Shown in pieces: positions 25,482 to 30,418 of a DNA stretch of 32,000 nt. Source of the DNA: Candidatus Harpocratesius repetitus (GTDB lineage: Archaea > Asgardarchaeota > Lokiarchaeia > Sigyniarchaeales > Promethearchaeaceae); NCBI GenBank assembly GCA_021498095.1, contig JAIZWK010000001.1, forward strand, positions 900,001 through 932,000, written 5' to 3'. The notes beneath the pieces are model-generated. The model saw only the letters and a list, made by a program, of their open reading frames with translations, did not search any database and had not been told where the DNA came from. Numbering within the stretch: position 1 is the stretch's first letter; each line of letters starts with the position of its first letter. The translations under genes were made by a program, and so were the position numbers.

Positions 25482-26234
25482 GTGATGCCTATCTCCAATA
25501 CTCAAAAATCCGGTGAGACAAGTGGGTCTTCTTCGCATACTTCCAAGACGCACAAACATCACGAATGTAAATCAAAAAATAAATCAGAAGGCGTAATTTC
25601 TTTTAAAGATGTTATGCAAAGTAAACCTAAATTCTTGATTTTTTCTCTATTATCAATGTTCCCAGAACTTAGTTTGAAACAATTGAAGGAATTTACCAGT
25701 AAATCAAAATCGACCATCTCAATACATCTCTCAGACATGGAACGTATGGGATTAGTCCGAGTTGCAAGAGAAGAAAAAGCACGTGGTTCTATTCCAACAA
25801 AATACTTTCGATTAGTCGAAGATTATGAAGAAAAAATCGCAAGACGTAAATGTGAAAATCATGAAGATCGTATAGCTGAATTTAAAGAGTTTTTGCAAAT
25901 ACATCAATCCTTTGCACAAGTTCAATCTCAATTATTAAGCAAATGGTTAAAATATTTGTCTGCACTTGAAAAACGTTTAGATTCTAATCAAGATCCTGTT
26001 GTCATTGAGGAAATTTCCTCTTTAAAAGCTGAAAAAGGAAGACTTTCGGTTGTTTCTTTTTATACAGATAGTATTGCAGCAGAAATGCGTAAAGGTCTAT
26101 GGCCAATTTATAAAAAAGCAGAACATGATAATAAGGAGGCAGATAAACCTGATCCAGTTGTACATCCATATTTTATTGGTGTTCAAATACTCCCAATAAA
26201 GCGCGCATTTGATTATTTCTTTGAAAATGAATAA
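25482..26234 (+). CDS. Winged-helix (ArsR/MarR-like) transcriptional regulator with Ser/His-rich N-terminal tail
   Basis: ELSLKQLKEFTSKSKSTISIHLSDMERMGLV...TKYFRL wHTH followed by a helical C-terminal domain. Confidence 0.8.
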   Translation: MMPISNTQKSGETSGSSSHTSKTHKHHECKSKNKSEGVISFKDVMQSKPKFLIFSLLSMFPELSLKQLKEFTSKSKSTISIHLSDMERMGLVRVAREEKARGSIPTKYFRLVEDYEEKIARRKCENHEDRIAEFKEFLQIHQSFAQVQSQLLSKWLKYLSALEKRLDSNQDPVVIEEISSLKAEKGRLSVVSFYTDSIAAEMRKGLWPIYKKAEHDNKEADKPDPVVHPYFIGVQILPIKRAFDYFFENE

Positions 26235-26344: not shown

Positions 26345-26863
26345 ATTCCTACAGAGAAAAAGAAAACGTTATCTGCAACATTAAAAGCTGTTTTAAAAGA
26401 TTTTGGTGGACCGGAAGCTCTCAAAATTGCCAAAATCTTACTAGATGCTGGTGATGAAACCACTGATGAGAAAATTGCCGAATTAAGTAAAGTTAAACTC
26501 AATGTAGTTCGAAAAATTCTCTATATATTAAATGAGAATAAATTAACTGAGTTTAAGCGAGTCCGGGATAAGCGTTCAGGCTGGTTCGTATACTTTTGGA
26601 ATGAATCATTCGACAATTTGCCCTTATTGTTACAAGAACGTAGGGAAATGGTTATCGAAAAATTAGAATCTCGAATGAAGTATGAAGAACAGAATTATTT
26701 CTTTCAATGTAGCAATGGATGTGAAGGACGATATGTCTTTATTGAAGCAATGGATTATAATTTTATTTGTCCTGTTTGTCAACAAGGTCAATTAGTTGCT
26801 GATGAGAACAAGAAAAAAGTGCAATTTCTCAAAGATTCAATAATAAAATTAAGAAATTTATAA
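26345..26863 (+). CDS. tfe: Transcription factor E (TFE/TFIIE-alpha), full length; ORF track shows only the C-terminal half
   Basis: In-frame upstream extension from 26339: SIPTEKKKTLSATLKAVLKDFGGPEALKIAKILLDAGDETTDEKIAELSKVKLNVVRKILYILNENKLTEFKRVRDKRSGWFVYFW (TFE wHTH), then Zn ribbon FQCSNGC...FICPVC. Start placed at ATT 26345 after an AGGTGA SD. Confidence 0.92.
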   Translation: MPTEKKKTLSATLKAVLKDFGGPEALKIAKILLDAGDETTDEKIAELSKVKLNVVRKILYILNENKLTEFKRVRDKRSGWFVYFWNESFDNLPLLLQERREMVIEKLESRMKYEEQNYFFQCSNGCEGRYVFIEAMDYNFICPVCQQGQLVADENKKKVQFLKDSIIKLRNL

Positions 26864-27007
26864 AAATTCATTTTTCATTTATTTATTTTTGTCTTTATAC
26901 ACTTTTATTTAGCACATAATTCGGAATTTATAATTTTAATTCCAAAAATAAATATAGCCGGTCTCTATTATTAGATCATATATTAATCAATGAGGGATAA
27001 TAAAAAC

Positions 27008-27322
27008 ATGGATTCAAACACTTATATTGTCAAAATTAATTCGGCATTGTCGAATAAGCCTTTTTTTATTAAAATTGATGATCCTTCGCTGAGTGTTGAC
27101 ACAATTTTTAACGAAGCTATCATTCAACTAAAAAATGCGGGAAAACCACTTGAAAGTCAGCAATTAGCTCAATTATATGAACGACATCAGATCTTTAATT
27201 CAGGCAATATTGTTCAAAAAGGCGATCTATTCTCAGACCTTATCAAGAAAAAACAAGTAGTTGGGGATCAAGAAGTAAAAATTGCTGAGTTAGATTTAGT
27301 TACATCTCATTCTGGAGGATAA
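27008..27322 (+). CDS. Divergent ubiquitin-like (beta-grasp) protein with free C-terminal GG
   Basis: Ends ELDLVTSHSGG* (ubiquitin: TLHLVLRLRGG). QIFNSGNIVQKGDLFSDL aligns to RLIFAGKQLEDGRTLSDY. Likely ATG at 27008 (track start 26990). Confidence 0.72.
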   Translation: MDSNTYIVKINSALSNKPFFIKIDDPSLSVDTIFNEAIIQLKNAGKPLESQQLAQLYERHQIFNSGNIVQKGDLFSDLIKKKQVVGDQEVKIAELDLVTSHSGG

Positions 27323-27501
27323 TTCTTTATCTTTTTATCCTTTTTTTATTCATTTTATTATTCTAGCTTATCATTTATTATATATTTACAAAATAGTAAT
27401 CTACTAAGAGATGAAGAAATAAATTGCTTTTTCTTTTATCAAATTGAATACTTTCGATCAATTCCATAACTTTTCAAGGAATCATGGATTTTATTGCTTA
27501 A

Positions 27502-27951
27502 GTGATTACTATGAAATCAAATCCGCGTGTGATAATGGAAACGAGTAAAGGAACTTTACTGATTGAATTGTATTCGGAACATGCACCGGGAACTGTGGCT
27601 AATTTTCTTAAATTAGTTAATCAAAAGTTTTATGATGGGTTGACTTTCCATCGAGTTATCCCTGATTTTGTTGTTCAAGGGGGATGTCCTCATGGAGATG
27701 GTACTGGCGGTCCGGGATGGACTATTAAGTGCGAAACTGAGGGTAATCCATTAATTCACAAGCCTGGTGCGTTAAGCATGGCTCATCGTGGAAAAGATAC
27801 AGGTGGATCTCAATTCTTCATTGTACTTAATCGAGAAAATACCAAACATCTTGATGGAAAACATACAGTATTTGGTCAAGTCGTTAGTGGGATGGAATTA
27901 ATATCAAAAATTGAACAAGGCGATCGAATGCTGAAAGTAGAAGAGATTTAA
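27502..27951 (+). CDS. Cyclophilin-type peptidyl-prolyl cis-trans isomerase
   Basis: [46 protein letters not shown]. Confidence 0.96.
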
Positions 27952-28014: not shown

Positions 28015-28902
28015 ATGGCTCAAGTATTTAGGGCAGCACACATGGTGCGAGATTTAGAACCTGAAGATATTCGTGTGTTGACTGGAATCGAGTTGGGCAT
28101 GCGCCGTTTTGAATTTGTCCCTATGGATCAAATAAGTTATTATTCTCGTATTCTAAAATCAGAAACTGAATATCGACTTAATAAACTTCATAAACTGGGT
28201 ATTCTTCAGCGTAATTCCCAGTTGGGTTATGTGGGGTATCAACTTATTTCAGAATCATATGATATCTTAGCCCTCAATACTTTAACTCAACAGGAGATTA
28301 TTATTGCTGTTGGTGATTTAATTGGGCGTGGAAAGGAATCAGATGTATATATTGCAAAATTACCAAATGGAAAGGAATGTGCTTTAAAAATTCACCGAAT
28401 TGGCCAAACTAGTTTTCGTCAAATCCGAAAATTGAGAAATTACATAAAGAATCGCAGACACATCTCCTGGTTATATGTTAGTCGTCTTTCAGCGGAATCA
28501 GAATATGCCGCGTTACAGAAAATTTCGCAATTAAAAATTAATACTCCAGTTCCCTATGGACAAAATCGACATATGGTAGTTATGAGTTTGATAGAAGGAA
28601 AATTAATAAGTACGATTCCAGAACTGGAAAATCCTGAAGATATTTTAAATCAAATTCTTAATCAAATAGAGACTCTTTATTTGCAAGGAAAAATGATTCA
28701 TTGTGATTTGGGTGAATTTAATATAATAATTACACCAGATCAAAAGGTTCAAATTATCGATTGGCCGCAATGGGAAAGTAGTGACCACCCAAATGCAATC
28801 TCTTACTTAACTCGTGATTTATCAAATATTAATTTCTTTTTTAGGAAAAATTATCATGTTGATTTCGATTTAGATGATTTTTTATTTCATTTATTAGAAT
28901 GA
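28015..28902 (+). CDS. rio2: RIO2-type atypical Ser/Thr kinase (N-terminal wHTH)
   Basis: N-terminal wHTH (DIRVLTGIELGMRRFEFVP), GRGKESDVY, ALKIHRIGQTSF, IHCDLGEFNII, IIDWPQ. Confidence 0.93.
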   Translation: MAQVFRAAHMVRDLEPEDIRVLTGIELGMRRFEFVPMDQISYYSRILKSETEYRLNKLHKLGILQRNSQLGYVGYQLISESYDILALNTLTQQEIIIAVGDLIGRGKESDVYIAKLPNGKECALKIHRIGQTSFRQIRKLRNYIKNRRHISWLYVSRLSAESEYAALQKISQLKINTPVPYGQNRHMVVMSLIEGKLISTIPELENPEDILNQILNQIETLYLQGKMIHCDLGEFNIIITPDQKVQIIDWPQWESSDHPNAISYLTRDLSNINFFFRKNYHVDFDLDDFLFHLLE

Positions 28903-29030
28903 CATAATAAGAACTCATCAACACTCAATTTACATAATTCTAATTGATCTAATTTAATATTCTCTAGATGATTTTCATATTTCTTTTAGGTTCCAAAAGA
29001 TTTATATATCTAATAAATAGAGTGATTTTA

Positions 29031-29267
29031 ATGATACCCGAAGGTGGTTACAACACAGAAAATATTGAGCTCTTTTACCTAGGATATTTTGGAATTGCTG
29101 TATTGGGAATTCTATTGCTAATAATAAATGTTATATTATCTCGAAGAAATAATAACCAAGAAAATGATTTCGCAAAAAAATTAGCAAACAATTTAAAGCC
29201 TTTAGGAATTGTATTTATATTTATTGGTTTGTTAGGGGTTTTTATTCTTTTTTGTTTTATGATATAA
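29031..29267 (+). CDS. Small two-TM membrane protein
   Basis: Likely ATG at 29031 after GAGTGA (track start 28968). Two hydrophobic helices around a polar loop. Confidence 0.55.
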   Translation: MIPEGGYNTENIELFYLGYFGIAVLGILLLIINVILSRRNNNQENDFAKKLANNLKPLGIVFIFIGLLGVFILFCFMI

Positions 29268-29280
29268 TAATTTGCTTCTT

Positions 29281-29943
29281 TTATTTTGATTCGATATAGA
29301 ATATCCAATCTTCTATACTCGGACTAAAAGGATAATCAATTATTTCTATTTTAAAATTTCTTTCTAAAAAAACATTACTCAACCATTTTTTCCATAGTTT
29401 AAAGTCGTATTTTTTTTTTAATACAGAAATAACGATTTTAGTGATTAAATTGGCATCTTTTTTAATAATTCTGTGTATTTCTTTTATTCCTTTTATTGGA
29501 TCTGGAAGATTTTGAAGAGTTGTTAGGGAAATTATATTTAAAATTATGTCATTTCGAAATGGTAAATTTTCAGCATCTGCACAAACTAAATGTGGGTTAA
29601 ATTTATATTTTCTATTTTTAAATCTGTGATTTATCCATTTTGATTTAAATTTTAGCAACATTCCATTTGATAAATCACAACCAATATAATGAAAAGATAG
29701 AATTTTTTCCTTTTTTTGGGAACTTATTATTAAATCCCAAGTTAATCCTGTCCCACATCCAAGATCAAACCACATGCAATTAAAATTTATATTTTTTGTA
29801 GAAATAAGAGAAAATTTCTTTTTTTGAAGCGTTTTATAACGATTATCATAGATTTCTATATAACTTTCCTCATTATAGCGGTCTTGGATTTCTTTTTTTT
29901 TTCTTTGTGAAAGATTATGAGATATTGATTTTGATTCATTCAT
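29281..29943 (-). CDS. Class I SAM-dependent methyltransferase
   Basis: FDLGCGTG, IGCDLSNGML, CADAENLPF, SLTTLQNL. Confidence 0.9.
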   Translation of the reverse strand: MNESKSISHNLSQRKKKEIQDRYNEESYIEIYDNRYKTLQKKKFSLISTKNINFNCMWFDLGCGTGLTWDLIISSQKKEKILSFHYIGCDLSNGMLLKFKSKWINHRFKNRKYKFNPHLVCADAENLPFRNDIILNIISLTTLQNLPDPIKGIKEIHRIIKKDANLITKIVISVLKKKYDFKLWKKWLSNVFLERNFKIEIIDYPFSPSIEDWIFYIESK

Positions 29944-30175
29944 ATTTCATTCAAACTTAGATTTAGATTGACACATTTTATTATTTTGAATAAATTGTTA
30001 TTATAAAGGATGATTTGATATTGCTAAATCATTTGATCAGTTTAACATTTTCGTTTTACTGATCATCTTATTGCTTGATTGCTTGATCACTTTTAAATAC
30101 TTTTAAGCGAAAGATCTCATTGTTTTTTAAAGGATGCATCATTATTTACTCCATTGATTAAGTTACGTGTTTTTT

Positions 30176-30418
30176 ATGGCATATAATAACAGTCGTAATC
30201 CATTACGAGCGCTTCAAAACCGAATTGGACAAGAAATTGTTGTTCGTTTGAAGGACTCAACTGAGTATCGTGGTAATTTAAAGGAATATGATAATTTTAT
30301 GAATTTAATAATTGAAAATGTTACTGAAACAATTCCCCATGAGGAAGAAACGAATCACTATTCTGAGCTTTTTGTGAGGGGAAATAATATTCTTTTTATT
30401 TTGCCCGAAGCGGATTAA
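30176..30418 (+). CDS. Sm-like archaeal protein (SmAP/LSm)
   Basis: Sm1 (IVVRLKDSTEYRGNLKEYDNFMNLII) and Sm2 (LFVRGNNILFI) motifs. ATG at 30176. Confidence 0.95.
   Translation: MAYNNSRNPLRALQNRIGQEIVVRLKDSTEYRGNLKEYDNFMNLIIENVTETIPHEEETNHYSELFVRGNNILFILPEAD

Follow-up and report, generated by a model that had tools for sequence, protein, structure and literature searches.

The bacterial BilABCD systems, which are ISG15-like and occur as Type I and Type II, are encoded in the operon order Ubl-E2-JAB-E1 (bioRxiv 10.1101/2023.09.26.559546; PMC10557695), and the Bil JAB pre-processes the ubiquitin-like protein (Ubl) to expose its reactive glycine and was also shown to cut a Ubl-GFP fusion (PMC10557695). 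The archaeon Caldiarchaeum subterraneum carries an operon for ubiquitin, an E1, an E2, a small RING protein and an Rpn11-like protein (PMC5654768, PMC6043591), the last of which processes the ubiquitin precursor of that archaeon (PMC6043591). Sampylation (SAMP/UbaA/JAMM1) attaches a GG-ended beta-grasp protein by means of a ThiF-type E1 and relies on a JAMM for removal; it uses no E2, and the SAMPs match the Pfam ThiS/MoaD profiles and double as sulfur carriers. In eukaryotes, ubiquitin-eL40 and ubiquitin-eS31 carry an N-terminal modifier fused exactly at its GG to unrelated, ribosomal proteins.

The window analysed here (a stretch of 32,000 nucleotides, genome positions 900001-932000 of a Lokiarchaeon) encodes a 104-aa ubiquitin-like protein, called UBL below, that resembles each of these systems in part. 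Its relatives in three distant lineages (genomes G126, G308 and G397) head operons in the gene order of Bil, whereas in the window's genome the modifier gene is split off from the operon. Pre-processing by the Bil JAB fits the forms of UBL in which a single residue or a whole domain follows the GG, and a solved BilA chain (8tyz_B) was among the UBL fold matches (VIA Z 7.5). Unlike Bil, the system has an Asgard host, its modifier is unlinked and duplicated in the window's family, and a defence-island context was not seen; Type II BilD is a multidomain protein with an IAD, an AAD and a mobile CYS, whereas the E1 described here, 283 aa in length, consists of one adenylation domain that carries CxxC pairs for zinc. 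Profiles of UBL, of the E2-like protein and of the JAMM protein found no match among solved Bil chains or PADLOC models, libraries whose coverage of Type I Bil is uncertain, and the E1 matched only generic E1-E2 models. With the Caldiarchaeum system, UBL shares an archaeal host and, as we argue below, a modifier that would be made as a JAMM-trimmed precursor. The Caldiarchaeum Rpn11-like enzyme was the closest solved relative of the JAMM protein (E 1e-9), followed by AMSH and Rpn11, and Caldiarchaeum ubiquitin gave the highest TM by query (0.56-0.58) among the UBL Foldseek matches; the JAMM by its sequence and UBL by its shape lean towards that system. The differences are that the Pfam ubiquitin profile misses UBL, that UQ_con misses the E2-like protein, that a RING gene was not noticed and that the E1 is ThiF/MoeB-sized. 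Eukaryotic ubiquitin and NEDD8 have the same fold and the LxLVxxxxGG end, but UBL shows no detectable sequence homology to them, contains two insertions and is 104 aa long compared to 76 aa; the cargo of its fusions is virus-like (dUTPase, PGDYG/phrog_419, TrmB-type helix-turn-helix) and not ribosomal. The UBL family is best read as a previously unnamed Asgard tag and a variant of the Ubl-E2-JAB-E1 systems, not as a member of Bil.

The UBL gene and its fold

The UBL coding sequence runs from 27008 to 27322 on the forward strand of the window, its translation ending in LDLVTSHSGG immediately before a TAA stop codon. Both this frame and the spacing that UBL shares with the end of ubiquitin (LHLVLRLRGG) had been described in an earlier, sequence-only reading of the window and agreed with our direct reading. 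An in-frame ATG lies 18 nt upstream (26990-27007, forward strand) and would add six residues (MRDNKN); it is the less likely start because the N-termini of the homologues line up with 27008. A GAGGG Shine-Dalgarno-like word at 26992-26996, 11 nt 5' of the ATG at 27008, is a candidate ribosome-binding site. By direct reading, an A/T-rich TATA-like word, AAAAATAAATATA (26944-26956, forward strand), lies about 50 nt upstream and may be an archaeal promoter of the gene's own, and a T-rich tract right after the stop codon (27325-27349, forward strand; T5 at 27332-27336 and T7 at 27341-27347) may be an archaeal oligo-T terminator, in which case the UBL gene would be a unit of its own.

A word-indexed search retrieved 38 close homologues, mostly metagenomic with very few exceptions, whose identity to UBL ranged from 58% to 88%, and an exhaustive phmmer search found only 54 cluster representatives among 1.8 billion. 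On the evidence of these relatives, the frame is a real gene under constraint and a chance open reading frame is excluded. The homologue of Lokiarchaeum ossiferum (NEF87_002067) is labelled a ubiquitin-like domain protein in UniRef; identity to the L. ossiferum counterpart was 66% for UBL, 66% for Rio2 and 81% for cyclophilin. No library names the family, which is invisible to Pfam and annotated as hypothetical and is therefore missed by surveys based on domain profiles.

An AlphaFold2 model built from a 38-row alignment (pLDDT 89.5, pTM 0.80) comprised strands at residues 5-12 and 15-23, a helix at 30-43, an extra helix at 47-59 corresponding to the first insertion, strands at 60-64 and 67-69, and a hairpin at 80-85/88-99 that forms the second insertion and the last strand, with the HSGG tail floppy or disordered. 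This agrees with the alignment to ubiquitin with two insertions that the sequence-only reading had made by eye. Foldseek ranked NEDD8, ubiquitin, SUMO and Caldiarchaeum ubiquitin highest among PDB structures, with E values from 5e-4 upward and a TM by target of 0.61-0.70 for these top matches. VIA, an aligner independent of Foldseek, placed a ubiquitin-like protein first (Z 8.9, rmsd 2.0 over 75 residues), then MoaD and ubiquitin (both Z 8.1) and then dozens of ubiquitin-like domains, with Z ranging from 8.9 to 7.3, and a shape search of the atlas returned ubiquitin/Rad60-SLD and MoaD/ThiS. The proposed beta-grasp fold was thus recovered by structure prediction and fold search, and we are confident that the model represents a fold of the ubiquitin type.

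This likeness did not extend to sequence profiles. In a Pfam scan, UBL and all 38 homologues left ubiquitin (PF00240)/Rad60-SLD, ThiS, Urm1 and Ufm1 unmatched at E values up to 5, and the family likewise did not match the ThiS/MoaD/SAMP/Urm1 profiles PF02597 and PF09138. Searched against PDB sequences, the family profile gave spurious matches to designed repeats only, and its comparison by hhalign with the genome's own PF00240 ubiquitin precursor returned a probability of 0.1, which amounts to nothing. UBL is probably not one of the Asgard Ufm1 homologues, which are reported from nine major clades (PMC12962969) and so form a different and wider family; Pfam Ufm1 (PF03671) had no match in the whole genome at E values up to 1, and UFM1 was absent among the UBL fold matches listed.

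The UBL C-terminus, precursor-like tails and fusions

S-H-S-G-G was conserved at 90% or more among the 38 homologues. Of 90 family proteins retrieved, 68 were intact at the C-terminal motif, and H-x-G-G was kept in every one of them (68/68), in line with the conserved terminal GG on which the sequence-only reading had rested its case. The same reading had raised the possibility of an invariant GG-stop, which did not hold: only 13 of the 68 stop at GG, while 27 carry one further residue, 5 carry 2-6, 2 carry 7-30 and 21 carry more than 30 (range 0 to 296 aa). The first residue beyond the GG varies (N, Y, I, M, C, F and others where it is the only one), as it does in precursors of the ubiquitin type; the L. 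ossiferum form, for instance, ends in GG-Met and a paralogue in GG-KNK. The long tails are mutually unrelated, including a dUTPase (E 2e-20), a TrmB-type helix-turn-helix, a protein of the PGDYG/phrog_419 phage family and several unknowns. An invariant GG that may be followed by anything is the signature of a modifier that is made as a precursor and trimmed after the GG, and most UBL relatives are accordingly predicted to be precursors of this kind. The UBL of the window appears to be mature already and would need no trimming, and the same applies to its paralogue in this genome (4,123,740-4,124,057), which ends in HHSGG-stop and lies between acetyltransferase genes.

Fusions joined at the GG were found at five metagenomic loci (L026:2444-3235, L082:1803-2462, L084:6401-7090, L085:3507-4193 and L027:1254-2465), where the protein that follows is a dUTPase, a PGDYG/phrog_419 protein, a zinc-ribbon protein or of unknown kind. 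Of four fusion-bearing contigs that we looked at, three consist of dense, mostly one-directional arrays of small unannotated genes, and these same three encode phage-type DNA methyltransferases, dUTPase, ThyX and DEAD/ResIII helicases. PHROG scans of the fusion-bearing contigs returned DNA methyltransferases, helicases and phage families of no assigned function, with no capsid, portal or terminase on any of them. A scan of IMG/VR with the UBL family alignment gave 44 pattern hits, of which none was confirmed; as these patterns were derived from the chromosomal subfamily, fused forms may have escaped them. The gene content suggests that the fusion contigs may be Asgard virus or mobile-element genes, and it is because of the two empty searches that we use "virus-like" as an interpretation throughout.

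An unlinked E2-like/JAMM/E1 operon that probably acts in trans

The sequence-only reading had noted that no E1, E2 or JAMM gene is present in the window, and a search of the whole genome bore this out, with all ThiF, UQ_con, JAB and Prok-JAB matches falling outside 900001-932000. In the three distant lineages, UBL heads a tight operon in which it is followed by an E2-like protein of about 260 aa, a JAMM protein of 320-360 aa and a ThiF E1. The window's genome holds a counterpart that lacks UBL at 431,995-434,454, about 490 kb from the UBL gene, made up of a 283-aa ThiF-type E1 (431,995-432,846; Pfam ThiF, E 2e-54), a JAMM metalloprotease with an intact E...HSH...S..D motif (432,843-433,616) and a 274-aa E2-like protein with an HPF-x(7-12)-C-[LM]-G motif and a UBC-like fold (433,630-434,454). 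By BLAST, the UBL-less operon is orthologous to the distant operons, its proteins being 44-50% (E1), 34-42% (JAMM) and 30-36% (E2-like) identical to theirs. It recurs in the carrier genomes of the family, with a helical protein downstream.

The family alignment of the E1 (254-327 aa, a single ThiF domain) showed a glycine-rich loop, R-Q, an aspartate, two CxxC pairs and an invariant crossover-loop cysteine, the catalytic and zinc residues being invariant as well. Its nearest solved relatives were ThiF (E 2e-37, far better than UBA5 at 3e-18), the Uba1 adenylation domain and MoeB. In the JAMM alignment, E96, H149, S150, H151, S159 and D162 were invariant, and in 27 sequences of the E2-like protein the same was true of H190, P191, C205 and G207, with HPF followed 7-12 residues on by C-[LM]-G. 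The E2-like protein was unmatched in Pfam (both as a single protein and as 27 members), in PADLOC and among PDB sequences. Its model (pLDDT 86.8) gave E2s as best Foldseek matches at only E 0.06, and when VIA was run on residues 100-263, its 50 best matches were, with few exceptions, E2, UEV or RWD domains (Z 7.5-4.1). A shape search of the atlas was uninformative, and a feature search provided a lead toward Prok-E2_D clusters at 0.86, below the 0.9 level. We take the protein to be an E2-like carrier that is divergent and bears an additional N-terminal domain; the Z-scores are middling and alone would be insufficient, and this reading of the model rests on the motif and on the uniformity of the matches.

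Several observations were made beside the operon. Divergent from the E2-like gene runs a gene for a protein of 224 aa whose C-terminus forms a zinc ribbon (genome 434,581-435,255, forward strand; L039:8582-9256). All carrier genomes of the family that were inspected have it, at 51-86% identity, and the protein may serve as regulator, target or E3-like partner. Pfam scans of genes downstream of the operon found TPR repeats in one lineage only and no E3 or target candidate. One genome of the family (G134, contig C136, L057:4815-6478) has two tandem E2-like copies ahead of a longer, 446-aa JAMM protein and the E1, and it gave three UBL matches. The window's genome also encodes a separate ubiquitin-like conjugation module, a CBASS-type set at 2,401,316-2,404,813 (L005) with a 557-aa Cap2-like E2-E1 fusion, a 152-aa Cap3-like JAB and a nucleotidyltransferase-like gene.

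A search with the family alignment found UBL in 14 of 400 genomes of the phylum. Besides the window's genome, UBL is present in 10 of the 13 other genomes of its own family and in a single member of each of three distant families, compared to 0 of 135 genomes of the sister family; the majority of carriers encode it twice. The E2-like gene was found by alignment searches in exactly the same 14 of 400 genomes, so that the carriers of both span four families, and both genes are missing from the same three genomes of the window's own family. This agreement is not a statistical test, as the genomes are related and amount in effect to some four gains or retentions and to one or two losses. Co-folding the E1 alignment with the UBL alignment lent weak support, with a score of 0.38 compared to 0.00 for the best of three controls, at least 89% contact agreement between runs and a partner pLDDT of at least 77. 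Among reference pairs, 58 of 80 solved complexes and 2 of 110 mismatched pairs attain the mark for a pass, but only 7 of the 80 do so with a score of 0.60 or under, as do both of the passing mismatches; the pass of this modelled pair may reflect its likeness to solved E1-Ubl complexes.

Overall, we consider it probable (roughly 0.7) that UBL is a conjugatable modifier activated in trans by the E2-like/JAMM/E1 operon, which supports the proposal of the sequence-only reading that UBL represents a distinct modifier family of this kind. The biochemical steps we infer as follows. The exposed Gly-Gly carboxylate of UBL would be adenylated by the ThiF-type E1. The 274-aa E2-like protein would next take UBL over on its invariant cysteine, in thioester linkage, and UBL would then be joined to target proteins. 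The JAMM would remove whatever follows the GG in the precursor forms and probably also reverses UBL conjugates; as both UBL copies are mature in the window's genome, it would be needed there only for removal. The last lysine of UBL is K91, so that trypsin would leave 13 residues (Ile92 to Gly104) on a target, a remnant that the diGly enrichment proposed in the sequence-only reading would miss.

The genome encodes other enzymes that could act on UBL: an E1 of the eukaryote type, a UQ_con E2 and, in addition, three more proteins with a ThiF domain. An alternative explanation, which we regard as unlikely, is that UBL is conjugated by the eukaryote-type ubiquitin machinery and that the ThiF/JAMM/E2-like operon is uninvolved. 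The long E1 (about 3,322,400-3,324,100) and the UQ_con E2 (220,418-220,846) do exist unlinked to any modifier gene, and the last strand and tail of UBL have the LxLVxxxxGG spacing of ubiquitin. However, the natural client of these enzymes is the genome's own Pfam-recognised 83-aa ubiquitin precursor (QAGG-Y), to which UBL has no profile similarity, and the operon linkage in three lineages together with the identical pattern of presence and absence favours the ThiF/JAMM/E2-like set.

Genomic neighbourhood, function and meaning

The neighbours named by the sequence-only reading, TFE, cyclophilin and RIO2, were all recovered by their domains. An intact TFE-alpha with winged helix and zinc ribbon lies at about 26345-26863 on the forward strand, its C-terminal half 59% identical to an L. 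ossiferum protein that matches Pfam TFIIE_alpha. Its frame contains no ATG, GTG or TTG before residue 92, and the list of open reading frames gave the last 81 aa only; since the frame opens with IPTEKKK and the annotated L. ossiferum protein starts with IPTEKKE, an ATA/ATT-type start codon is suggested. A canonical start is also missing in the long eukaryote-type E1 (L004, about genome 3,322,400). Downstream of UBL on the same strand follow a cyclophilin-type peptidyl-prolyl isomerase (27502-27951; PF00160, E 2.7e-46) and a Rio2 kinase with Rio2_N and RIO1 domains (28015-28902), the latter being the first gene of an older Rio2-methyltransferase-LSm cluster. Upstream of TFE-alpha, a protein of 250 aa that combines an N-terminus rich in Ser/Thr/His with a winged helix of the MarR/ArsR type is encoded at 25482-26234 (forward strand) and has no counterpart at the equivalent position in L. 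ossiferum.

The order TFE-UBL-cyclophilin-Rio2-methyltransferase (on the opposite strand)-LSm is shared by L. ossiferum, by one more Lokiarchaeon and by several of the family's genera. Synteny with tfe, ppi and rio2, which the sequence-only reading had suggested might be invariant, was limited to some genera of one family, and the distant lineages have the UBL-E2-JAMM-E1 operon instead. The Rio2-Methyltransf_11-LSm cluster (window 28015-30418; loci L058-L081) is conserved without UBL across three families of the order (f1-f3), of which the window's family alone showed cyclophilin upstream of Rio2. Two genomes of that family (G131 and G132) keep cyclophilin-Rio2 and lack both UBL and the E2-like operon, and in one carrier genome UBL is located outside this neighbourhood. 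The neighbourhood, which the sequence-only reading had described as one of core information processing, is thus real, yet it looks incidental. The other ubiquitin parts of the genome are scattered as well, namely the 83-aa precursor, the single UQ_con E2 and the long E1. A functional tie between UBL and TFE, cyclophilin or Rio2 was considered and rejected, given that the Rio2-methyltransferase-LSm cluster is older and order-wide, that cyclophilin-Rio2 is also kept where UBL is absent and that one UBL lies elsewhere.

A further alternative is that UBL is a non-conjugated ubiquitin-like adaptor whose GG is an inherited relic and whose position beside cyclophilin and Rio2 reflects a role in the biology of ribosomes or transcription factors. 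The gene order kept in several genera is consistent with this, as is the finding that UBL evolves about as slowly as Rio2 (both 66% to L. ossiferum). Nevertheless, we think this explanation slightly more doubtful than conjugation by the eukaryote-type enzymes, because the GG never changes although the sequence beyond it does so freely, G131 and G132 keep cyclophilin-Rio2 yet lack UBL and the E2-like operon alike, and in other lineages UBL sits in the enzyme operon and not near Rio2. About equally unlikely is a ThiS/MoaD/SAMP/Urm1-type sulfur carrier that is thiocarboxylated by the ThiF enzyme for cofactor or tRNA thiolation and is not mainly a protein tag, for which the beta-grasp fold, the GG end, the compact ThiF/MoeB-like E1 with ThiF (E 2e-37) and MoeB as nearest solved relatives, MoaD at Z 8.1 in the fold search and the MoaD/ThiS clusters of the atlas search would all be suitable, but 0 of 38 UBL members match Pfam ThiS, Urm1 or any other family, the operon provides a JAMM and an E2-like protein whose cysteine is invariant while sulfurtransferase, MoaE, ThiG and rhodanese were not seen among its genes, long C-terminal cargo after the GG is a precursor feature of conjugated modifiers, and the distribution of UBL is too narrow for an essential cofactor pathway.

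Taking UBL as a conjugatable modifier activated in trans, its biological role may be housekeeping tagging or conflict with viruses. A broader scenario, which we put forward tentatively and do not regard as the likelier outcome, is that one Lokiarchaeia family and, sporadically, other Asgard lineages possess a second Ubl system that is unrelated in sequence to the eukaryote-type ubiquitin beside it and whose modifier has become unlinked and duplicated, and that viruses or mobile elements of these archaea encode this modifier joined exactly at its GG to proteins of their own (a dUTPase, a phage PGDYG-type protein and a DNA-binding protein) and thereby depend on, or subvert, the host JAMM and conjugation enzymes.

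The preferred reading would mean that a Lokiarchaeon carries, beside its eukaryote-type ubiquitin, a separate modifier of unrelated sequence with its own compact E1, divergent E2-like carrier and JAMM, the modifier genes being detached from the enzyme operon as they are in eukaryotes. Cultured relatives such as Lokiarchaeum ossiferum carry the modifier together with the E2-like protein and so bring the hypothesis within reach of a direct test, and the GG-joined fusions to virus-like proteins provide a natural substrate set for the JAMM. If the viral-fusion reading is true, these fusions would be an archaeal parallel to the ubiquitin-fusion precursors and to the viral use of ubiquitin in eukaryotes.
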